A program made the translations under genes and the position numbers. This document shows, in pieces, positions 229 through 14,400 of a stretch of DNA of 37,032 nucleotides. The notes below the pieces were generated by a model, which made no database searches, had not been told where the DNA came from, and saw only the letters and a list, made by a program, of their open reading frames with translations. Source of the stretch: a virus (Duplodnaviria; Heunggongvirae; Uroviricota; Caudoviricetes); the IMG/VR virus record IMGVR_UViG_2700989496_000004; one strand, 5' to 3'. How positions within the stretch are numbered: the stretch's first letter is position 1; every line of letters starts with the position of its first letter.

Positions 229-801
229 TTACATTTCAGGTTGCGTTATGACAGTCCCAACAGGGTGATAGCGGTAGATCGTTGACAGTCCAATATCATA
301 GATAATTGCCAGCCGCTTTCTGTCATACCCTTTCTGGAGCAATCTTGCGATCTGCTCATGCTGCTCCTTCGTCAGTTTCGGGCGACGTCCTCCAACTCTT
401 CCTTGTGCTCGCGCAGCAGCCAGTCCAGCCAGCGTGCGCTCAACTATCAGTTCACGCTCCATTTCTGCCAGTGCACCCATCATATGAAAAAAGAACCTTC
501 CCATCGGAGTGCTGGTATCGATTGAATCCGTCAGACTGCGAAAATTGACACCTTTTGCGCGTAGCTCTTCTGTGAGAGCAATGAGGTGTTTCATTCTTCT
601 ACCCAACCGATCCAGCTTCCAGACCACCAATGTATCCCCTCTTTTAAGGCACTTTAAAGCGCGTTTCAGGCCTGGTCGTTCCGACTTGGTTCCGCTCATT
701 TTGTCCTCAAAAATCTGTTCACATCCTGCGCACATTAATGCATTGCGTTGCAAATCTGTGTTTTGGTCATTTGTTGACACACGTATGTAGCCAATCAGCA
801 T
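229..801 (-). CDS. gin: Serine DNA invertase, Gin/Hin/Pin/Cin family
   Basis: Protein begins MLIGYIRVSTNDQNTDLQRNAL, close to Mu Gin as recalled, about 190 aa. AAGGGAG lies 8 nt upstream of the ATG at 799-801. The 233-aa track ORF carries an unlikely N-terminal extension. Confidence 0.93.
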   Translation of the reverse strand: MLIGYIRVSTNDQNTDLQRNALMCAGCEQIFEDKMSGTKSERPGLKRALKCLKRGDTLVVWKLDRLGRRMKHLIALTEELRAKGVNFRSLTDSIDTSTPMGRFFFHMMGALAEMERELIVERTLAGLAAARAQGRVGGRRPKLTKEQHEQIARLLQKGYDRKRLAIIYDIGLSTIYRYHPVGTVITQPEM

Positions 802-857
802 TAAAAATACTCCCTTTTGAGTGGTTAAAGTACTGAGATAATGTGGGGAGGATTTGA

Positions 858-885
858 GAGATAAACGTTGGTTTGGGGGAAGGCT
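858..885. repeat. cix/gix-like crossover site 1
   Basis: Reverse complement reads CCTTCCCCCAAACCAACGTTTATCTC. It sits at the 5' edge of the conserved fibre segment shared by all three cassettes. Boundaries approximate. Confidence 0.55.
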
Positions 886-1301
886 CGGCGCTGCCCGTTG
901 GTGTACCTGTTCCGTGGCCCACTGCCACACCGCCAGCAGGCTGGTTAAAGTGCGACGGGCGCGCCTTTACAAAAGAACAATATCCTGTTCTGGCCAGAGT
1001 CTACCCGACCCTCCGTCTTCCCGATTTACGCGGTGAGTTTATCCGTGGATGGGACGACGGGCGAAAAGTGGATACAGGGCGCGATCTGCTTTCACGGCAG
1101 GATGGTACAAGTTTTTCTCATTACGCAGGTAATTTTGACATTGGGTCTGGTCATTCAATCAATAACTATGACCAAATCGTTGACAACCAACCTGGATTCT
1201 CCCGTTTTTCATTTGCAGGTCCTTCGCGAGGCGATGGGGTTAATTATGTGACCATTCGTCCCCGTAACATTGCGTTTAATTACATCGTAAGGGCGGCATA
1301 G
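873..1301 (+). CDS. Silent alternative tail-fibre C-terminal cassette 1 (no own start or promoter)
   Basis: First ~70 codons (GEGSALPVGVPVPWPTATPPAGWLKCDGRAFTKEQYPVLARVYPTLRLPDLRGEFIRGWDDGRKVDTGR) are identical to an internal segment of the expressed fibre 2394-3731. The tail then diverges and ends ...RPRNIAFNYIVRAA. Confidence 0.75.
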   Translation: MGEGSALPVGVPVPWPTATPPAGWLKCDGRAFTKEQYPVLARVYPTLRLPDLRGEFIRGWDDGRKVDTGRDLLSRQDGTSFSHYAGNFDIGSGHSINNYDQIVDNQPGFSRFSFAGPSRGDGVNYVTIRPRNIAFNYIVRAA

Positions 1302-1325
1302 AAACGTTGGTTTGGGGGAAGGCTC
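1298..1325. repeat. cix/gix-like crossover site 2
   Basis: AAACGTTGGTTTGGGGGAAGGCTC repeated at 1302-1325, same orientation as site 1. Boundaries approximate. Confidence 0.55.
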
Positions 1326-1773
1326 TGCATTGCCTGTTGGTGTACCGGTTCCATGGCCCACCGCCACACCGCCAGCAGGCTGGTTACAGTGCAACGGAGC
1401 TACGTTCACCAAAGAACAATATCCTGTTCTGGTCAGAGTCTACCCGACCCTCCGTCTTCCCGATTTGCGCGGTGAGTTTATCCGTGGATGGGACGGTGGT
1501 CGCAAGGTTGATACCGGGCGTGCGCTACTTTCATTTCAGGAAGGGACTATCGTATCCGGTTTTGATGATAATGATACCGGAGATATCAGTTCGCTCGGCT
1601 CTACACAATACGGATTTGGTGACGCTTTAACCTCTAATCAACTGGGGGTCTTAAATGGCAAAAAGTGGATATTTGATGCATCCTCTAAAGGTGCACAAAG
1701 ATATGACTGGTGGGCTTATGTATCAGCTCGCCCCCGCAATATCGCATTTAACTATATCGTGAGGGCGGCGTGA
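1312..1773 (+). CDS. Silent alternative tail-fibre C-terminal cassette 2
   Basis: Begins GEGSALPVGVPVPWPTATPPAGWLQCNGATFTKEQYPVLVRVYPTLRLPDLRGEFIRGW, then a distinct tip ending ...RPRNIAFNYIVRAA. No start codon of its own. Confidence 0.75.
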   Translation: MGEGSALPVGVPVPWPTATPPAGWLQCNGATFTKEQYPVLVRVYPTLRLPDLRGEFIRGWDGGRKVDTGRALLSFQEGTIVSGFDDNDTGDISSLGSTQYGFGDALTSNQLGVLNGKKWIFDASSKGAQRYDWWAYVSARPRNIAFNYIVRAA

Positions 1774-1779
1774 TACCGT

Positions 1780-2394
1780 TCAGCCGGCAAGCGCCAGTGG
1801 CGCTTCCGGCCAGCTGATTTCAGGTGCCTTGCTGATATCCAGTGCGTTCAGCTCGTCGATATAATCCAGCACGGCGTTCAGTTTTGCCGTTTCTTCTGGT
1901 TTCAGACTGCGACCAGCACGCAGTTTGAGGTTGATAAGATCGACGGACGCCATCGCCTGTTTCACCCGTTGCTGGCGTTGCTGTCTGGCAACCTCCAGTT
2001 CTGCGGCTCGCTGCCGTTCAGTATCGGTTACCCACGCCTCACCGTTCCAGGTATCCCATGGCGTGGCTGGCTGTTTTGTGGTGGTGTCCGCCGGGTAATC
2101 ACCCGGTTGGGTAATCAGAACGGGGTTACCGTTCTCCGTGCTGTATACCGTCTCGCCGCGGTGATCAGGCACATGCTCCCACCCGTTCAGCGTGGCAGTC
2201 CGGCAAACCACGTAACCCGAAATTGCTTCCGGCGGTGCATCGGCGCACGAATGTGCCGGAGTACCCACCCCAAGGGCGAGATACTCCACAGAGGATGAGG
2301 TGTATTCCCGGGTTTCCTCGTCATAGTGATATACAGTGATATCGCCCGCTACAGTGGCGATACCGTTTTCATCCAGAACTGCAGTGTTACTCAT
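1780..2394 (-). CDS. Tail fibre assembly protein (Tfa, Mu U-like)
   Basis: 204 aa immediately downstream of the fibre gene, start overlapping the fibre stop. Call rests on position and recalled Tfa-like character. Confidence 0.7.
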   Translation of the reverse strand: MSNTAVLDENGIATVAGDITVYHYDEETREYTSSSVEYLALGVGTPAHSCADAPPEAISGYVVCRTATLNGWEHVPDHRGETVYSTENGNPVLITQPGDYPADTTTKQPATPWDTWNGEAWVTDTERQRAAELEVARQQRQQRVKQAMASVDLINLKLRAGRSLKPEETAKLNAVLDYIDELNALDISKAPEISWPEAPLALAG

Positions 2395-3731
2395 TAAACT
2401 GCCCTCACAATGTAATTAAGTGCAATGCTACGGGGTCTGACAGTGATACCCTTCGCATACCCGCTTCTGATAGAGGTCAGAATAGTAGCCTGCATACCAT
2501 TGTCTGACATTGCCACGACAGGATCGCTGAATGTTGTCCCGTCCGGCATTTTAAAGCTGCCCTCACGAAGGTCTGTAATGGAATCTTCATTGTTGAATCC
2601 CATGCCGACTATCCCCGAGGTTCCCGTAGTGTCCTGGTTATAATAATCCAGCATTGCTGTTCTTAACAGCGTTGCCCCTTGTGCGGACAGCAACTTACGT
2701 CCTGTATCAACTTTGCGCCCGTCGTCCCATCCACGGATAAACTCACCGCGTAAATCGGGAAGACGGAGGGTCGGGTAGACTCTGGCCAGAACAGGATATT
2801 GTTCTTTTGTAAAGGCGCGCCCGTCGCACTTTAACCAGCCTGCTGGCGGTGTGGCGGTGGGCCACGGAACAGGCACACCAACGGGTAGCGCCGAGCCTTC
2901 TCCTAAACCAAGGTAATTGAGGACATCTTTTATACTGCCCTTAGCGATAATAGCGCGACCAATAGCTGTAAGGGTTGCCAGCTCTGCGCGGTCTGCTCCG
3001 GTAAAATAAGGCAACCGATCTGCTGCAGTGGCAAGTCCTGCCAGAGCAGTGAGCGTGGCATCTGCCGGTTGTTTTCCGTTTGCCAGATCGTATGCAGCCT
3101 TGACCGCTTTCGGTGTGGCGGCCAGTATTTCAGACGTGCTGTTGATGGCACTGCTCAATTGTACGGTGCCTTTTGCCGTCAGCGAGGCAGCAGGCACTCC
3201 CGTTATCTGACTCCACGGGTGAGTGTGGCTGACGGGCGCCTTGCCGGCTGCAAGGTCGTATGCAGCCTTGACCGCCTTCGGCGTGGCAGCCTCAGTTTCT
3301 GATTGACTGTCCGTGGCGCTGCTCAGTTGTACGGTGCCTTTTGCCGTCAGTGAAGCCGCAGGCACTCCCGTTATCTGACTCCACGGGTGAGTGTGGCTGG
3401 CAGGCGCCTTGCCGGCTGCCAGGTCGTATGCAGCCTTGACCGCTTTTGGTGTGGCGGCCAGCGTTTCAGAGGTGCTGTTGGTGGCACTGCTCAGTTGGGT
3501 GAACCCCTTAGCTGTCAGTGTCGCGTCCGGGTGGTTACGGGAACGTACGTGTTCAGCCAGTGACTGTGCGGCTTCCTCCGTTTTCTTCTTCAGCCATTTC
3601 GTCCTGTTTGCCAGTTGCCGGGGGGCTCGATTTGATATCCCGTCTGCACCACCCAGAACCGGATCTGATGTCTCCAGTTGATAGATATTTTCTTCCCACT
3701 TTTCTGTTTCATTCAGGTTTCCCATAATCAA
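2394..3731 (-). CDS. Tail fibre protein (constant N-terminal part plus currently expressed variable tip)
   Basis: 445 aa with three ~55-aa tandem repeats (TAKG..QLSSA..S.SE..AATPKAVKAAYDLAAGK...HTHPWSQITGVPAASL) followed by the conserved crossover segment and a tip ending ...RPRSIALNYIVRAV. Start overlaps the stop of the upstream gene. Confidence 0.88.
   Translation of the reverse strand: MIMGNLNETEKWEENIYQLETSDPVLGGADGISNRAPRQLANRTKWLKKKTEEAAQSLAEHVRSRNHPDATLTAKGFTQLSSATNSTSETLAATPKAVKAAYDLAAGKAPASHTHPWSQITGVPAASLTAKGTVQLSSATDSQSETEAATPKAVKAAYDLAAGKAPVSHTHPWSQITGVPAASLTAKGTVQLSSAINSTSEILAATPKAVKAAYDLANGKQPADATLTALAGLATAADRLPYFTGADRAELATLTAIGRAIIAKGSIKDVLNYLGLGEGSALPVGVPVPWPTATPPAGWLKCDGRAFTKEQYPVLARVYPTLRLPDLRGEFIRGWDDGRKVDTGRKLLSAQGATLLRTAMLDYYNQDTTGTSGIVGMGFNNEDSITDLREGSFKMPDGTTFSDPVVAMSDNGMQATILTSIRSGYAKGITVRPRSIALNYIVRAV
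2893..2920. repeat. cix/gix-like crossover site 3 (inverted relative to sites 1 and 2, inside the expressed fibre gene)
   Basis: Minus strand reads ACCTTGGTTTAGGAGAAGGCTCGGCG..., i.e. TTCTCCTAAACC-AA-GGT on the complement. Homology to cassettes 1 and 2 begins here. Boundaries approximate. Confidence 0.55.
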
Positions 3732-4306
3732 CTGCTCCCGTGGTTATAACTGCCATCATGGATGGCGGTATTGTTATAGCGAATGGCCACAGACTGATAC
3801 TCCAGGCTGGCCAGATGGCAGCGGGCCGGTGCAAATGCAGCCAGCGTCTGACGCAGCATCGCGGCCTGATCGTTAGTAATGGGCTGTTTCAGAATAACGC
3901 GATAAACTGCCCAGGCGGCTGCATCTCCATGAACAAACAGTCCGTTATAGCTGCGATTGCCGTCGTAACTGAGACGACCTGTGCCTTCAATCAGATCCAC
4001 TTCACCAAAGCCAAAACGGCGGATAACTTCCCGGATTGACCACGGCGTCCCTTTATACCGGTGCAGTTCGATGGCTGCTTTTATAAGCATGCGGCGAACA
4101 TCGTCCGATTCCGCCAGCTCCCAGCCATCGCCAGACAGTGAGAACTGCTCGCCCAGCCATGGCAGCGCGGAACTGTCGACGATATCGACGAGAAAGACCA
4201 TCAGTACGCTCAGGTCGATGTTATCCAGCCGTCCTGCCAGTCTTCCCAGCGTCCTGAGACTGATATCACCCTCAAGCGGTGGCGGGAGTTGTAATGGCTC
4301 AGTCAT
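3728..4306 (-). CDS. Tail protein, P2 gpI / Mu gp48-like
   Basis: 192 aa, position between the baseplate J-like gene and the fibre gene, start and stop overlapping neighbours. Confidence 0.65.
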   Translation of the reverse strand: MTEPLQLPPPLEGDISLRTLGRLAGRLDNIDLSVLMVFLVDIVDSSALPWLGEQFSLSGDGWELAESDDVRRMLIKAAIELHRYKGTPWSIREVIRRFGFGEVDLIEGTGRLSYDGNRSYNGLFVHGDAAAWAVYRVILKQPITNDQAAMLRQTLAAFAPARCHLASLEYQSVAIRYNNTAIHDGSYNHGSS

Positions 4307-5402
4307 CAGACACTCCAGTCATGTTAAGAGTGATTGCCGTACAGTTTGCCCATTCGTTTTCTGCCACCACCCGCAGTGCCGGTGTCACCAGTTCAACCTG
4401 GTACACCCCGGAAACGGACAATGCACTGATAATCTGGCTGGGGACAATATCGCGCCCCAGCGTGGCGGCACGTGATGCCACCCAGTTCTGTATGGCGCTG
4501 TTAGCGGCATCTTTTACAGACCTGGCATCCTGATCACGATAGATCGTAATCCTGGCTTCAATGGTGTAATCCACCTTCACTGGTGTTTTAGCCCGCACTG
4601 TATCAGTGAGTGGCCTGACTTTCTCATCAGAGCAGAAACTCTCTACCAGCGTGAGAACACCGCCGTCCGGCAGACCGGTACTGAGCAGCGGATACAGATC
4701 TACGGTCCCGGGAACCGGGGAAAGCACAGCAACATCGACAATGTTGGGATGGGCCTGCATGGCATGAAAGCGGTATGCGCCACGGCTTCCGGCATTGGTG
4801 AATGACTCCGGGGCCAGCCTGATACGCTCCCGGAGCCTGTCATCGTCTTCCTGTTCTGAACCGCCGGAACTGGCCATCAGATTGCTCACCAGCAGGTTAA
4901 CGTTATCAATCTCATCGAGTAACTGACTGACCTGCGCAGGTTGCCAGCCGTTACCAGCGGTACCGGGTTCGGTACAGGTGGCCGTGACATTGACCAGCAG
5001 CAATCCGGCCTTCAGTACCACATCTGTATCGGTGGCAAAAATAACGCTGTCGGAAGCGCTGACGCGGGTGCCTGCCGGGATCAGCACATCAATGGCCAGT
5101 GCCTCATCTACGGAGAACTGGAGCGTGGTGGTGGCAGGCTGCGCGGCAAGACGGTATACACCGACCAGTTCACCGAGGTAATCAATCATCGGCTCACGGG
5201 CAAAGGCGACCAGATTCTGCTTTGCTGCCTCCTGTACCGCAACCCTGACCAGCATTTCGCGATAGGCCCACAGATCAATCAGCAGACGTTCTGCCTGTGC
5301 CGGGTACAGCGTTTTGCCGGTATCCGCTTCATACTTCGCAATCATTTCTGCCGTGATTTTGTCGGCATCGCGTTCAATAAAATCGGGTTCTGTCAGCGCC
5401 AT
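4299..5402 (-). CDS. Baseplate J-like protein (P2 gpJ / Mu gp47-like)
   Basis: 367 aa, in the V-W-J-I-fibre order typical of P2/Mu baseplate modules. Confidence 0.75.
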   Translation of the reverse strand: MALTEPDFIERDADKITAEMIAKYEADTGKTLYPAQAERLLIDLWAYREMLVRVAVQEAAKQNLVAFAREPMIDYLGELVGVYRLAAQPATTTLQFSVDEALAIDVLIPAGTRVSASDSVIFATDTDVVLKAGLLLVNVTATCTEPGTAGNGWQPAQVSQLLDEIDNVNLLVSNLMASSGGSEQEDDDRLRERIRLAPESFTNAGSRGAYRFHAMQAHPNIVDVAVLSPVPGTVDLYPLLSTGLPDGGVLTLVESFCSDEKVRPLTDTVRAKTPVKVDYTIEARITIYRDQDARSVKDAANSAIQNWVASRAATLGRDIVPSQIISALSVSGVYQVELVTPALRVVAENEWANCTAITLNMTGVSDD

Positions 5403-7745: not shown

Positions 7746-8626
7746 ACACTCCTCGTCAGTATTCTGGCGGCCATTGCACTTAATCCCGGAGACATGCGGT
7801 TGAATGCTGTGCCGACGGCGTTAAGCTGCCCGGAAACGGTATCCAGAGCACCTGCAATATTTCTTTTGTCCACACCACTCAGCGCAGACTGTGCCTGCTG
7901 TACATACGTGGCTGCTTCGCTGGCTGTTCTGGCCAGACTGATGGCATCGGGCATGGATTCAGAGAGTGCGTTAAACGCCGGAACACTTTTCCCCAGAGCC
8001 CCGGAGATATTACCCAGTCCGCTCATCAGCCCCGGCACACGGGTCAGTGCGACAACGGGGTTATCCTTCATTTTCTGTGTCACCCGAACGGCGCTGATAG
8101 TGGTCTGGAGTACAGACTGCGCCTGTTTCGCATAGTTGACGCCGTTGCGGATGAACTGCGCCACCCCTGAAGGTGAAGGTATGGCACCGGAGACCGCCCC
8201 GACACCCGGGAGCTTCGTGCGTATTGCCGGTGGTTGCAGAGGATTTTTCGGGTCACCGGTGTATTCCCGGAGAGACACGGTGGCACTGACAGCCAGCACG
8301 TTGCCGGTACTGTCAGTCTGCTCGCTGGTTGCAGTCACATCGGTGATCACGAACCAGCCGCGATAGTCACCGTTGCCGAAGACCAGCGCCAGTGCCTGAT
8401 GGGCTTTCATGGCTGTTCGCAGTCTCGCCAGCTCCACATCGGGTACACAATAATGCTGATGGAAAACCAGAGTTATCTGGATTTCGTCCAGCCTGTCGCC
8501 GACGAACTGCAGACCAGGCTTACCCCCGATGCGGGCATGCTCCGCATAATCGACGCCGAACGTGGCCTCGAAGCCGTCCCAGTAGGTAATCAGCTCAAAC
8601 TCAATATCACCCAGTACGGCAAACAT
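7742..8626 (-). CDS. Tail-associated protein (gpU / DNA-circulation N-domain-like)
   Basis: 294 aa immediately downstream of the tape measure gene. N-terminus MFAVLGDIEFELITYWDGFE...LQFVG resembles gpU-type proteins as recalled. Confidence 0.5.
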   Translation of the reverse strand: MFAVLGDIEFELITYWDGFEATFGVDYAEHARIGGKPGLQFVGDRLDEIQITLVFHQHYCVPDVELARLRTAMKAHQALALVFGNGDYRGWFVITDVTATSEQTDSTGNVLAVSATVSLREYTGDPKNPLQPPAIRTKLPGVGAVSGAIPSPSGVAQFIRNGVNYAKQAQSVLQTTISAVRVTQKMKDNPVVALTRVPGLMSGLGNISGALGKSVPAFNALSESMPDAISLARTASEAATYVQQAQSALSGVDKRNIAGALDTVSGQLNAVGTAFNRMSPGLSAMAARILTRSV

Positions 8627-11577
8627 CAGCGGTACTCCTTACGTTGTTTCTGAGCCAGCAGACGCTCCAGCATTTTTTCCAGCTCATGCAGACTCATATT
8701 CAGGGCACCAGTCAGTCCTGCAGGCGCTGTGGTTTCCCTGCCATTGAGGAAAAACTGAGGATTAAAGCTGACCTGGATACCACCAGACGTTCCACCGCCG
8801 GTTGCAGCTGCACCACGGCCTGAATATCCGGCAGCCAGGATTTCAGGCGAGGGGATACGGGGAACATCCGGTGTCATCTCATTTGCCAGACGTTGCCCTG
8901 GTAAAATCGATGCCCGGGTGGAGAGCGGAATAGCGGGCATGGAAGACAAACTATTGATTACGGCTCCGATCGCATTTTTAGCAGACGACATAAACCCATT
9001 GATATCGGGCAACGGCATACTGAAGCGAACACCTGAAGTGTTATCCCGTATTTCTGGCCCCTGAATGCTCACGGGCATTCTGGGGAGCAGTTCACTGGCC
9101 ATTCGCTGCCCGGCCAGAGCTGCAAGCGGAGTGGTCCGCTGCAGGCCAATGGCGGCCCCCTGCGCGATATTGTCACCAAAGCCCATAAACACGCGGCTCG
9201 GCGAATGAATGCCCAGCTTTTCGCTGAACCAGCCACTGATGCTGTCGCCCATTCCGGTTACACTGGATTTGAGCGACTCCCATTTGTTTTTGATACCGTT
9301 AATCAGACCATCGACAAGATGGCCACCGAAGTCGGTAAACTTTGCCGGCAGATCAACACCAAGATATTTCAGCGCAGCTGCAAAGGCTTTATAGAGCAGA
9401 CCTGCCGGCGACCAGTTAATCAGCAGCTTACCAGTTCCCGCGATACCGCCGTTAAAGGCTTCCTGAATGTCAGCCCAGCATTGTTTAAACCAGCTACTGA
9501 TGCTGTCACCCATTCCGGTTACACTGGATTTGAGCGACCCCCATTTGTTTTTGATACCGTTAATCAAACCGTCGATAAGATGGCCACCGAAGTCGGTGAA
9601 CTTTGCCGGCAGAGTAACGCCGAAATATTTCAGCGCAGCCGCAAAGGCTTTATAGAGCAGGCCTGCCGGCGACCAGTTAATCAGCAGCTTACCAGTTCCC
9701 GCGATACCGCCGTTAAAGGCTTCCTGAATGTCAGCCCAGCGCTGTTTAAACCAGCCACTGACTGCCCCCCAGTTGCGGTAGATAAGGTAAGCTGCTGCCG
9801 CGACAGCGGTGATAACGAGACCGATGGGATTCATCATCAGCGCTCGCCCAATCCAGAGAACGGCACGTGCAGCGCTCATAAAACCGCGAACGAGGCTGCC
9901 CGCCAGAACTTTGCTGAGTTTCAGTCCTCCGCTGGTCAGTCGGCTGAATCCAGTGACAAGCCAGCGTAATTTGCCACCTTCTCCGAGTGCGGTAGTCAGT
10001 CGATGCCAGTTGGTCCGGAGTAAAACAGCAGTTTTCCAGACGTTCACAAAGGGGGAAATAAGGAGATTCAGCCCCAGTTTGAGACCAACAGTCGCTATCT
10101 TAATCGCAAGGAGCGCACTGATGAGCTTAAAAGCCCCACTGACAAATTGCGGGTGAGTCGCCACCCAGTGTTTTGTCCCCTGAATGAGTGGGAGCAAGTC
10201 CTGAGTCAGAGAAATAAAAGATGGAGCTAATTGATCGCCCAGCGTAATTGCCAGATCGCGACTGCTGACCATAAGTGTTTTAGTGGCTTCAAGGGGAGAT
10301 TTCAGCCGCTGATCATAAGCACTGGCAAGCAAATCGTTATCCGCAGCCCTGAGAGCACCGGCACGGATCTCTCGATATCTGTCCATGTTGGCCAGCATCG
10401 GGCGGATAAATGCCATGACCTGCATATCCGCGAACATATCGCCCAGACCAAAGTTTTTCGCCAGAGCCTGAAGTGCCTCATCTCTTGCCGTATCATTCTT
10501 TATTTTCATGGCTGATTTGAAGCCGGCCAGCGCTTCGGGGCTTTTGGCATTGAGGTAACGTTCTATAACACTCAACATCCCTTCAATCGGAGAGATCCCC
10601 GCAGCTTTATAACTCGCAATAGATCCCTGCAAATCAATACCCAGATCAGCAAACTGTTTCTGAGTATCGCGGGCAAAAATTTTGGTAAGAAAGTTTTTAA
10701 AATTATTGGCTGCTTCGTCGGTGGAACCTGCACCGATTTTTGCTATCTGGAGACTGGCCCCGATTTCAGCAACAGCCTCTTTTCCACTGGCAATACCCGC
10801 CATCATTGGGGCCAGGGACTGCATCCACTTGACCTGATCCGGGATTTCAAATGACCCCTGGTCACCGGCATAAGCCATAATATTCTGAACGGCACCAAAA
10901 TCTCTGGCCGCGCCTTTCAGGGAGTTTTGCCAGACTGCGGCCACTTTTGCCCAGTCCTGAGCAGACGTGCGTGTTGCCGTTGCCGCGCGGGCAATATCCG
11001 GCATCAGAAAACCGATATCTGACACATTATCAATATTGTCGCTGATGAGTGAACCCATCGCCTCCTGCAGCTCATCCTGATACTGATTGTATTTAAGCGC
11101 CCAGCCTTTTATCTGTCCGGCAAGTGCATCCCGCGTTTTATTGTCATATTTTGCGGTGATCGACATATCAATCATTTTGTCCTGAAAAGACATGGACTGC
11201 TGAACGGCAGGGGAAACCGTATGATAAACAGTCTGTGCCATGCCATACGCTTCAATCCCCTGACCATACAGCGCCATGCGGTTAGCTTTCAGCGCATCAC
11301 TGGTAGCGGATGCCGCTGACAGACGGCGCTGCTGGCGCTCAATTTGCTCCATGGTGCGGCTTACCCGCAGCAGCTCGCTGTTGAGATGCTGCATCCGGGA
11401 AGAACCCAGTTGACCATAACGTTCTGTTGCACGGGTTAAAGCGTTCTGACGTTCCTGCAGGCGGCGTGAGGTATCGCTCAGGGAATCAAGCGCACGGCGG
11501 GTACCGCTCATTGCAGAACGGAATGTGCTGCCAATCATCCCGCCGATAACAACGCCGACTGAAAACTGTCCCGACAT
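8626..11577 (-). CDS. Tail tape measure protein
   Basis: 983 aa, hydrophobic/Gly-rich segments, internal 86-aa tandem duplication, located after the chaperone pair and before baseplate genes. Confidence 0.9.
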   Translation of the reverse strand: MSGQFSVGVVIGGMIGSTFRSAMSGTRRALDSLSDTSRRLQERQNALTRATERYGQLGSSRMQHLNSELLRVSRTMEQIERQQRRLSAASATSDALKANRMALYGQGIEAYGMAQTVYHTVSPAVQQSMSFQDKMIDMSITAKYDNKTRDALAGQIKGWALKYNQYQDELQEAMGSLISDNIDNVSDIGFLMPDIARAATATRTSAQDWAKVAAVWQNSLKGAARDFGAVQNIMAYAGDQGSFEIPDQVKWMQSLAPMMAGIASGKEAVAEIGASLQIAKIGAGSTDEAANNFKNFLTKIFARDTQKQFADLGIDLQGSIASYKAAGISPIEGMLSVIERYLNAKSPEALAGFKSAMKIKNDTARDEALQALAKNFGLGDMFADMQVMAFIRPMLANMDRYREIRAGALRAADNDLLASAYDQRLKSPLEATKTLMVSSRDLAITLGDQLAPSFISLTQDLLPLIQGTKHWVATHPQFVSGAFKLISALLAIKIATVGLKLGLNLLISPFVNVWKTAVLLRTNWHRLTTALGEGGKLRWLVTGFSRLTSGGLKLSKVLAGSLVRGFMSAARAVLWIGRALMMNPIGLVITAVAAAAYLIYRNWGAVSGWFKQRWADIQEAFNGGIAGTGKLLINWSPAGLLYKAFAAALKYFGVTLPAKFTDFGGHLIDGLINGIKNKWGSLKSSVTGMGDSISSWFKQCWADIQEAFNGGIAGTGKLLINWSPAGLLYKAFAAALKYLGVDLPAKFTDFGGHLVDGLINGIKNKWESLKSSVTGMGDSISGWFSEKLGIHSPSRVFMGFGDNIAQGAAIGLQRTTPLAALAGQRMASELLPRMPVSIQGPEIRDNTSGVRFSMPLPDINGFMSSAKNAIGAVINSLSSMPAIPLSTRASILPGQRLANEMTPDVPRIPSPEILAAGYSGRGAAATGGGTSGGIQVSFNPQFFLNGRETTAPAGLTGALNMSLHELEKMLERLLAQKQRKEYR
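9229..9744. repeat. 258-bp tandem duplication (2 copies plus the start of a third) inside the tape measure gene
   Basis: aaccagcc/tactgatgctgtc...cccattccggttacactggatttgagcga recurs with a 258-bp period. The encoded 86-aa units differ at about 6 residues. Confidence 0.85.
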
Positions 11578-11652: not shown

Positions 11653-11910
11653 CTATGATTTGTCGCCGTACTCGCTTTTGATTTGCTCTTCAGCCTGCTC
11701 CAGCCACATCTCCAGATCGTCAGTATCGAGGGCATCAATCTCCCCCGGCTGAAACCGGAACCATCTCGCCAGCAGCCCCTGCGCCTGCGTCAGCGCCCTG
11801 GTTGCTCTCACCCATCCCCGTGATGAGCTGAAATCGTTTCTGTAACTGCAGGTAATCAGCCAGATCCATATTGTCGAGATCCTCCGGGAGAAGACCAGTA
11901 CTGCGGGCAA
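11653..11910 (-). CDS. Overlapping extension ORF, possible frameshift product (E'-like)
   Basis: 85-codon ORF in the +1 frame relative to the chaperone, overlapping its 3' half and ending 76 bp before the tape measure start. C-terminus ...DTDDLEMWLEQAEEQIKSEYGDKS. Confidence 0.4.
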   Translation of the reverse strand: MPAVLVFSRRISTIWIWLITCSYRNDFSSSRGWVRATRALTQAQGLLARWFRFQPGEIDALDTDDLEMWLEQAEEQIKSEYGDKS

Positions 11911-12070
11911 TCAGCGGTTCGTCCCAGTCTGCCGGGTTTTTGCTGATTTTGCGCACCTGCTTCAGGTCTTTTACCGTCAGGCGTTTCAGTTCAACCAGCT
12001 CAATTCTGGTGCCTGCAGCAGTGGTGAAGGGATAAGACAATTTAAAAGTATCGGATGGGGTCTGTGACAT
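11735..12070 (-). CDS. Putative tail assembly chaperone (gpE / Mu gp41-like)
   Basis: 111 aa directly upstream of the tape measure gene, acidic Gly/Ala-rich C-terminus, overlapped by an extension ORF. Confidence 0.55.
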   Translation of the reverse strand: MSQTPSDTFKLSYPFTTAAGTRIELVELKRLTVKDLKQVRKISKNPADWDEPLIARSTGLLPEDLDNMDLADYLQLQKRFQLITGMGESNQGADAGAGAAGEMVPVSAGGD

Positions 12071-12451: not shown

Positions 12452-12973
12452 TCAGCCCCCGATATTGATACGGTAGTCAGTCAGTTGATCAACACCGCCG
12501 ACCCGGAAGATGTTGGCCAGATAGTCCAGTTGCAGCAGCTCTTCACCATCCAGTACCTGTCTGATATACGTGCAGGTGAAGCTACTGGAGAACTCGGCGT
12601 TCTCGTGCTGTTTGAACGTCCCCAGCGGGTTCTTCTTGAACATAATCGTCAGGAAGGTGACCAGCGGGATTTCGTCAATCAGCCCCTGCGAGCTGTAGCG
12701 CTGGACGCTGGAACGACACTGCAGTGCCAGCGACCTGTACGGGTTCGCGGCAGACAGCATCGCATCGCGGTAAAAGCTGTTCCATTTGATTTCGCCTTCC
12801 AGTTTGTCAAAACCAGCCGGGAGTTCCACCTTACCCACCATCCCCAGCGCCTTGTGTTCCTGCATAATCATGGAGACATCGGGGAGTTTAACTTCCTCAG
12901 CCCGTCCCAGCAGGTTAGTACCATCCAGATAGATGTTGGCATTCGTGATGCGGTTTATCTCAATCTTTGACAT
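12452..12973 (-). CDS. Tail tube protein (contractile tail)
   Basis: 173 aa immediately after the sheath gene with start overlapping the sheath stop. Confidence 0.75.
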   Translation of the reverse strand: MSKIEINRITNANIYLDGTNLLGRAEEVKLPDVSMIMQEHKALGMVGKVELPAGFDKLEGEIKWNSFYRDAMLSAANPYRSLALQCRSSVQRYSSQGLIDEIPLVTFLTIMFKKNPLGTFKQHENAEFSSSFTCTYIRQVLDGEELLQLDYLANIFRVGGVDQLTDYRINIGG

Positions 12974-14400
12974 CAGTTGCCCCCTTTCAGGGTTAACAGG
13001 TATTCCGAGGTGATCTCAGTCTCAAACGTCAGTCGCTCCAGCGGCGGTGGTGGCGTATATTTGTAGCTCAGCAACAGGTGCCCGGCGGCCAGCTCCGTCT
13101 CCGGATTGCGGGCCGGATCAAACCAGCAACGGAAGCCCAGTACCGCACCATCACCAGTCATTTTGCGACCGTAGGCGTTGACCGACTCCGTCAGTGCATC
13201 AATCAGCGCCTGAGTAATCGGCATGTCGATGTACTGCTGGCTGAAATAACGAATGGACTCGTTGATCACATCACCGGTGCGGCGAACGTTCTCAAAGTTA
13301 CGCATATGGGTGACCGTTGGCCATGCTGCCGTCCGGTTACCCCACAGACGAAGGCCGCTGCCGTAACTGCTGAATACCGTGGTGATCCCCTGTTCGTTAA
13401 GCAGGTTCACCTCACTCTGCGGGTCATCAATCATCGCGGACAGCTGGCGCTCCACGCCGGTGATCCCCAGAATCTCCTGATTGGAGGATGACCACCAGTA
13501 GCCCTTGTCCAGATCGACTCTGGCACGCAGACCTGCTGCACGCTGGCTGAGCGGCTCCAGACGCTCTGTGTTTGTCACCGGGTCATATACCTTCACATGC
13601 GGATAGCACAGACGGACGCGGTCGGAGCTGGTATTGAAGTTGATGGTGCCTTCCGGGCCACGACCTGCCAGAGCCTGTGCAAAGGTGGTACCGACAGGCG
13701 CATCAATGTAGGTTACCGCGCCCAGCTTCTCTGCCATGGCGATAAGCTCAACTGCGACACTCTTCTGGGTGCAGAACACCGGCGCAATCAGAATTTTGGC
13801 GAAATAGCCGTACAGGTTGAAGCTGTCGTTAAGCAGCTTCATGCCGGTTCGGTTTCCGGCGCTGTTCACCCCGCCGATGATGTCCGCCGCAGTCACCTTC
13901 GACGGGTCCGCGTACTCATAGCTCACCTTCACGCTGCCACCGGCCTCAATAGCCTTGCCCAGGTTCGTGAGCACACCCGCCTGCGCATCAACACGGTAGT
14001 CCGTGTTCGCCGTGTGGGTGGTGCTGCCTTCACTGTTTTTCACCACCACATTAGCGACAACCGGATGCGCCAGTCTGGCCTGCCCTGTCGATTTGTCAAA
14101 GGTAACCACCTCATCCTCGATCGCCGTTTTATGTTTCGCCGGGTCGAGGACGTTAATGACCAGAACGGTGCCTGCACCATGGTCATAAATCGCATCCAGC
14201 GCCTGCGGAATGGTAAAGCCGGTGAACTGGCTGCCAAATGCCGCTGCGTCTTTCTCAGACAGGCACTGTACCAGCGTATTGACATCCCCCATCGGGGCGG
14301 TACCAATCAGGCCAATAACGGCAGATTTCACCGTTTTAACCGGGCGGGCACCGTTTTCCACCTCAATGGTTTCGGGACCATGCAGATAGTTAGCTGCCAT
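12973..14400 (-). CDS. Tail sheath protein
   Basis: 475 aa, typical size and position for a sheath gene upstream of the tube gene. Confidence 0.85.
   Translation of the reverse strand: MAANYLHGPETIEVENGARPVKTVKSAVIGLIGTAPMGDVNTLVQCLSEKDAAAFGSQFTGFTIPQALDAIYDHGAGTVLVINVLDPAKHKTAIEDEVVTFDKSTGQARLAHPVVANVVVKNSEGSTTHTANTDYRVDAQAGVLTNLGKAIEAGGSVKVSYEYADPSKVTAADIIGGVNSAGNRTGMKLLNDSFNLYGYFAKILIAPVFCTQKSVAVELIAMAEKLGAVTYIDAPVGTTFAQALAGRGPEGTINFNTSSDRVRLCYPHVKVYDPVTNTERLEPLSQRAAGLRARVDLDKGYWWSSSNQEILGITGVERQLSAMIDDPQSEVNLLNEQGITTVFSSYGSGLRLWGNRTAAWPTVTHMRNFENVRRTGDVINESIRYFSQQYIDMPITQALIDALTESVNAYGRKMTGDGAVLGFRCWFDPARNPETELAAGHLLLSYKYTPPPPLERLTFETEITSEYLLTLKGGN

Follow-up and report, generated by a model that had tools for sequence, protein, structure and literature searches.

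A tandem repeat inside the gene that should set the length of a phage tail raises the question of whether the repeat is a natural feature of that gene, how old it is, and whether its copy number would be read out as tail length. We addressed this for the gene for the tail's tape measure protein (TMP) in the viral record IMGVR_UViG_2700989496_000004 (Caudoviricetes), the whole of which, 37,032 nucleotides, is here called the window. A preliminary description of this DNA had taken the repeat for a recent in-frame duplication predicting a longer tail, or alternatively for a fault of assembly.

We first describe the array itself. Tandem Repeats Finder (TRF), applied to the region 7–13 kb, returned a single array at 9227-9761, with a period of 261, 2.0 copies, 93% matches, no indels and a score of 958. 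A direct-repeat search placed the copies at 9227-9487 and 9488-9748 with 94% identity, and all the remaining direct repeats within the TMP gene were of 16–23 nt. The tandem repeat is far above chance level. The two full copies of more than 90% identity that had been described before were thus recovered, and the peptide given for them was correct. The unit had been put at 258 bp and 86 aa, which is one codon short in each case; it measures 261 nt, equal to 87 codons, and with no indels and no stop codons the array is in frame, as had been reported. The open reading frame is intact and is to be given on the minus strand (8626-11577). The two units differ at 16 nt, which amounts to 6 amino-acid changes and 8 synonymous codons.

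The supposed beginning of a third copy is no more than a 13-nt direct repeat, AACCAGCCACTGA, present at both edges of the array (Table 1) and, with one mismatch, at 9488-9500, where it marks the junction of units 1 and 2. The TRF end at 9761, beyond the end of the unit copy, is due to this 13-nt repeat. Past the array, the Trp-Phe pair is followed as WFSEK and not as WFKQR, and in one-copy alleles, too, the single unit lies between these 13-nt repeats.

The gene was identified from its family profile, its position and its predicted structure. The TMP of the window matched the Pfam profile PF10145 PhageMin_Tail with 74.6 bits (cut-off 33.2) and PHROG 28, 'tail length tape measure protein', with E 1e-135; PHROG 794, PHROG 58 and further TMP PHROGs were likewise matched. 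The protein is RefSeq WP_000016538.1 in the strain EC958, where the annotation of the identical region gives the gene order sheath, tube, tail assembly protein, TMP and tail/baseplate genes. An AlphaFold2 monomer model, based on 56 distant homologues, had 35 helices, no strands and a mean predicted local distance difference test score (pLDDT) of 70. Searching the sequences of all PDB chains with the TMP gave nothing at E ≤ 0.01. The earlier naming of the gene holds: the protein has the family profile, the gene position and the long, mostly α-helical make-up of a phage TMP, and on the combined evidence of Pfam, PHROG, synteny and predicted helicity this gene encodes the tail TMP. An antisense open reading frame of 254 aa (9205-9969, plus strand) also crosses the repeat. 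Its match to Pfam IpaB_EvcA (23.1 bits) is below the threshold of 29.9 bits and the substitutions fit the minus-strand frame; we treated it as non-coding.

Next, we compared the gene with its relatives. It is 100% identical to that of Escherichia coli sequence type 131 (ST131) genomes, for example EC958 and JJ1886. This TMP gene family is held by 636 of the 5,426 complete E. coli genomes that our survey covered. In 371 of the 636, the gene has two copies and is at least 99% identical to that of the window, and the sampled rows span the 2952 bp unbroken; the ST131 clone makes up most of these genome counts, which do not represent independent events. Three-unit genomes number ∼122, as the difference between the 586 and 464 records obtained with a three-unit and a two-unit query (coverage at least 80%), and an evenly spaced sample gave a similar result, with three units in 6 of its 30 rows. 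Residue-level alignment assigned one unit to the TMP of the strain E30 (896 aa) and three units to those of EC13 and SCU-101 (1070 aa). One unit is also found in the TMPs of IAL7250 (825 aa) and JNEC-KY180 (821 aa), which lack another 71 aa as well. In a database of 5.8 billion proteins, the TMPs fall into length clusters of 896, 983 and 1070 aa; no four-unit allele was found there among the close homologues. Hence, the one-copy relatives presumed in the preliminary description do exist when TMP lengths are compared among close relatives, and three-copy relatives exist as well.

Three complete genomes, IPCEC48, TUM14759 and AVS0947 (Cambodia, Japan and Switzerland), carry a one-unit allele, WP_032190072.1, which equals the window at every other gene position and has a clean 261-bp deletion. 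In this allele, the unit 1 state (CAGCGC) is found before a 79-nt stretch without differences between the two units, and the unit 2 state after it, which places a crossover between the units inside that stretch. As read from the alleles, this junction is the signature of homologous recombination between units. We also observed that the sheath (WP_000729834.1) and the tube (WP_162832341.1) are common to the one-copy E30, the two-copy EC958 and the three-copy EC13 and SCU-101; in the one-copy IPCEC48, the tube matches and the sheath lies outside the stretch compared. At the level of assembled genomes, these comparisons show that the copy-number polymorphism is natural, with one, two or three units in near-identical tail gene clusters. 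The array has the properties of a variable-number tandem repeat: a period that is a multiple of three, variable copies in near-identical alleles, and chimeric units.

Other length changes and mosaicism were observed within the same gene. The segment aa 823-893 (Table 1) is missing in the more distant one-copy alleles of IAL7250 and JNEC-KY180, and the alignments suggest another old duplication or deletion. The close homologue P0006 (1084 aa) has a 101-aa duplication that joins GKLL in the unit to EGGKLRW ∼100 residues upstream, and another, P0053, has a 12-aa duplication, GDSISSWFKQCW, at a unit junction. Each of these two variants was seen in one contig and could be either real or an assembly error. 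The TMP gene of JNEC-KY180 (L006, 1489-3954) is a mosaic, being distant at ∼nt 330-1480 and more than 90% identical at both ends, including the repeat region; this pattern points to within-gene recombination between different phages.

How old is the duplication? Between units 1 and 2, the synonymous divergence (dS) was 0.168 and the nonsynonymous divergence (dN) 0.036 by the Nei-Gojobori method, and the resulting dN/dS of 0.21 indicates that both copies have been under purifying selection as coding sequence. The two-copy state is common to alleles up to ∼3% divergent from the window. As the dS between the units is far above the 0–3% divergence among the two-copy relatives, the duplication is much older than those relatives, and its dating as recent is unsupported. 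By the same comparison, only the later copy-number changes appear to be recent.

The units also carry traces of repeated exchange. Unit 1 of the window is itself a mosaic, its 5′ part being as in last units and its 3′ part as in internal units; the single unit of E30 combines an EC13-like head with a body like unit 2 of the window, and across 76 close homologues the signature residues combine in many ways. In certain three-unit alleles the two leading units are identical, which indicates a recent expansion in the sequences concerned. When the 87-aa unit alone was searched against 1.84 billion proteins, it matched 591 representative proteins at E ≤ 1e-3, and the full-length proteins so matched were nearly all TMP-sized. 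A local domain search of distant TMPs found one to four tandem copies of the module, together with half-unit repeats. In five lineages the copies are nearest to their own siblings, which indicates either independent duplication or concerted evolution. Judged by these matches, the 87-aa module is an old building block that has been amplified again and again within this TMP family.

The element that carries the gene appears, from the annotation of EC958 and of the phage PhiKM, to be a Mu-like, contractile-tailed prophage of E. coli ST131. In EC958 the prophage sits between aroA and ycaL. According to these annotations, a DDE transposase, a MuB-like ATPase, Gam, GemA/gp16, a Mor/C activator and Mu-type head morphogenesis genes are present; of these, the DDE transposase, Gam, gp16/GemA and Mor genes are annotated together with the tail genes in EC958. 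PhiKM (PQ738613) shows 99.3% DNA identity and its record is classified as Bcepmuvirus. Our literature search on PhiKM and Bcepmuvirus found no paper on this phage or its tail length.

We propose that the first duplication most likely arose through mispairing of the 13-bp direct repeats found on either side of the unit in one-copy alleles, and that unequal homologous recombination together with gene conversion afterwards added, removed and shuffled units repeatedly; that copy number changes by recombination between units is shown by the alleles themselves. The length of the TMP would set the number of tube and sheath rings polymerised before the tail is capped. Textbook values are ∼1.5 Å per residue and ∼4 nm per ring. 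By analogy with lambda gpH, TP901-1 and T4 gp29 (PMC5099701, PMC3271669 and references 12-13 of PMC13585406), each 87-aa unit would lengthen the tail by ∼13 nm, or roughly three 4-nm rings, and the predicted rulers would be ∼134, 147 and 160 nm for the TMPs of 896, 983 and 1070 aa, respectively. We consider it likely that unequal recombination between the units changes the length of the ruler and hence that of the tail. On this estimate, it is reasonable to expect for the phage of the window a longer tail than in its one-copy relatives.

Several observations weigh against this proposal. The unit has Gly/Pro breaks, and AlphaFold2 models it as four short helices rather than one long helix (603-622, 624-634, 637-651 and 660-676 in unit 1; 690-709, 711-721, 724-738 and 747-788 in unit 2), so that the contribution per residue could be less than 1.5 Å. 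In this model the pLDDT is ∼70–80 in about the first two-thirds of each unit and low in the last third; the 87-residue module is predicted, with moderate confidence, to be all-helical. Whether a module interrupted by Gly/Pro would be fully extended in the tube is probably the main uncertainty of the ruler estimate. TP901-1, moreover, has TMP residues that contribute nothing to tail length (PMC5099701). Collapse during assembly might in principle have produced those one-copy alleles that otherwise equal the window; against it stand the three complete genomes from three countries, and the diverged one-copy alleles of E30, IAL7250 and KY180 are not explicable in this way. The genome counts come mostly from a single clone. 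Finally, the effect on tail length is a prediction for all of these prophages.

Known rulers place the proposed effect in context. In TP901-1, deletions and a duplication in the TMP scaled the tail length, and repeats were suggested as natural facilitators of duplication and deletion (Mahony 2016, PMC5099701). Like lambda gpH (Katsura & Hendrix 1984) and the TP901-1 TMP (Pedersen 2000; Mahony 2016, PMC5099701), the protein studied here would be a long helical ruler with in-frame gain or loss of segments. Those cases, however, concerned non-contractile siphovirus tails and laboratory constructs, whereas here we deal with natural alleles of a contractile-tailed Mu-like prophage. T4 gp29 is the length determinant of a contractile tail, according to Abuladze et al. 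(1994, cited in PMC13585406), which shows that the ruler principle extends to sheathed tails; unlike the present case, the T4 variants were engineered, and there is no sequence relationship between the two proteins. A literature search for ruler experiments on contractile tails returned nothing beyond Abuladze 1994. Belcaid, Bergeron & Poisson (2011, PMC3271669) described natural tandem units, whose duplications and losses can be traced, in TMPs with 11-residue units marked by Trp/Phe. Our TMP resembles those in its natural units and their history, but its unit has 87 residues; when the 983-aa protein was searched with regular expressions, it contained neither their Pattern 1 ([FW]-x10 seven times) nor their Pattern 2 (11-11-18 spacing), and the only enriched aromatic spacing was 87. 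As myovirus TMPs are mostly without tandem repeats according to a 2026 survey (PMC13585406), the TMP of the window is mildly atypical for its morphotype. It belongs to the same protein family as the PHROG 5690 and PHROG 28 TMPs of Mu-like and P2-like tails (e.g. PhiKM); the PHROG 5690 profile, of 907 positions, has one unit where the window has two.

If the units were compact, or had a role other than that of a ruler, such as envelope penetration after ejection, the duplication would be real and yet have little or no effect on tail length, and its copy number would be near-neutral. The Gly/Pro-rich breaks, the four short helices and the low pLDDT in the last third of the unit fit this possibility, as do the position of the units just after the hydrophobic segments of the TMP (∼aa 480-600), the extrapolation of ∼127 TP901-1 residues to zero tail length (PMC5099701) and the persistence of all three copy numbers in nature. 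We nevertheless regard it as unlikely, given that in lambda, TP901-1 and T4 in-frame deletions and duplications of helical TMP changed the tail length proportionally in every tested case, that the hydrophobic region adjoining the repeats in TP901-1 also added to length (PMC5099701), and that both copies are under purifying selection.

Starting again from recombination between units that alters the ruler, two further-reaching versions can be considered. In one, the module would serve Mu-like and P2-like tails of many lineages as a dedicated length cassette prone to recombination, working in steps of about three rings, with a copy number that tracks the thickness of the host envelope or capsule. 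We give this rather little credence; if true, it would amount to a heritable and reversible adaptation to the host through tail length and not through receptor-binding proteins. Less likely still, and in our judgement very improbable, is that the copy number is an adaptive, switch-like trait by which tail lengths are sampled for hosts differing in capsule, O-antigen or periplasm thickness. Mahony et al. (PMC5099701) suggested that TMP repeats act in this way, both expansion and contraction have occurred on near-identical backgrounds (P0001 versus P0027; IPCEC48 versus the window), and the same module was independently duplicated in distant lineages; however, the copy number changed in only 3 of ∼371 ST131-type complete genomes, a low rate that is not switch-like. 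It is hardly credible that the two copies in the source genome result from spurious expansion during assembly: although the 522-bp array exceeds short-read length and PhiKM has its gap there, two copies at 99% identity or more are present in ∼370 complete genomes that many laboratories assembled independently, 16 differences tell the copies apart, and selection acts on a reading frame that is intact.

The suspicion that the region is technically troublesome was borne out. In the PhiKM record, a 'sequencing gap' coincides exactly with the array (13434-13760), and the TMP gene is annotated as two pieces. In SCU-101 (1501-4713), the Prokaryotic Genome Annotation Pipeline (PGAP) calls the intact three-unit open reading frame two partial pseudogenes, one 'missing C-terminus' and the other 'missing N-terminus'; the translation aligns end to end with no stops, and the calls are an annotation artefact from the extra repeat unit. 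The repeat thus breaks short-read assemblies and misleads annotation, which calls for caution on prophage completeness calls at this locus.

The features of the window are collected in Table 1. At the chaperone locus, an overlapping GpE-family frame is annotated in the strain E30. Outside the tail length genes, we observed a multi-cassette invertible tail-fibre switch at 229-3731, in which the segments 865-1093 and 1304-1532 are 229-nt inverted repeats of 2686-2914 (94% and 85%, respectively). Parts of this region are annotated as pseudogenes in the EC958 RefSeq record.

Table 1. Positions of the TMP gene, its repeat array and other features of the window.
Feature	Position	Strand	Remarks
Resolvase-family invertase open reading frame	229-930	minus	
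Two alternative Collar-domain C-terminal cassettes	873-1301 and 1312-1773	opposite to fibre gene	
Tail fibre gene	2394-3731	minus	fibre-repeat and Collar domains
Tail TMP gene	8626-11577	minus	983 aa; sole long open reading frame crossing the array
Second length-variable segment (aa 823-893)	8899-9111	minus	71 aa; from alignments; bounded by GQR[ML]A..E motifs
13-nt direct repeat AACCAGCCACTGA, gene-distal array edge	9227-9239		
Repeat unit 2 (aa 696-782, WFKQCWADIQ...GDSISG)	9232-9492	minus	261 nt; 94% identity to unit 1
79-nt stretch of unit 2	9401-9479	minus	identical to 9662-9740
Repeat unit 1 (aa 609-695, WFKQRWADIQ...GDSISS)	9493-9753	minus	261 nt
79-nt stretch of unit 1	9662-9740	minus	identical to 9401-9479 in unit 2
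13-nt direct repeat AACCAGCCACTGA, gene-proximal array edge	9749-9761		encodes the ..SGWF junction
Tail assembly chaperone gene	11735-12070	minus	just upstream of the TMP gene; PHROG 166; RefSeq 'phage tail assembly protein'
Tail tube gene	12452-12973	minus	RefSeq annotation
Tail sheath gene	12973-14400	minus	RefSeq annotation; PHROG 23 tail sheath

Internal duplications of TMP genes are an already known route to a change in tail length, so that a feature of this type has precedents. The usefulness of the present case lies in a natural series: a temperate phage with a contractile tail has one, two or three copies while its sheath and tube proteins stay the same, and it occurs in clinical E. 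coli strains that are sequenced and available. The series would permit a direct test of the ruler in a sheathed tail, in terms of nm per residue and rings per unit, and also of whether tail length matters to infection.

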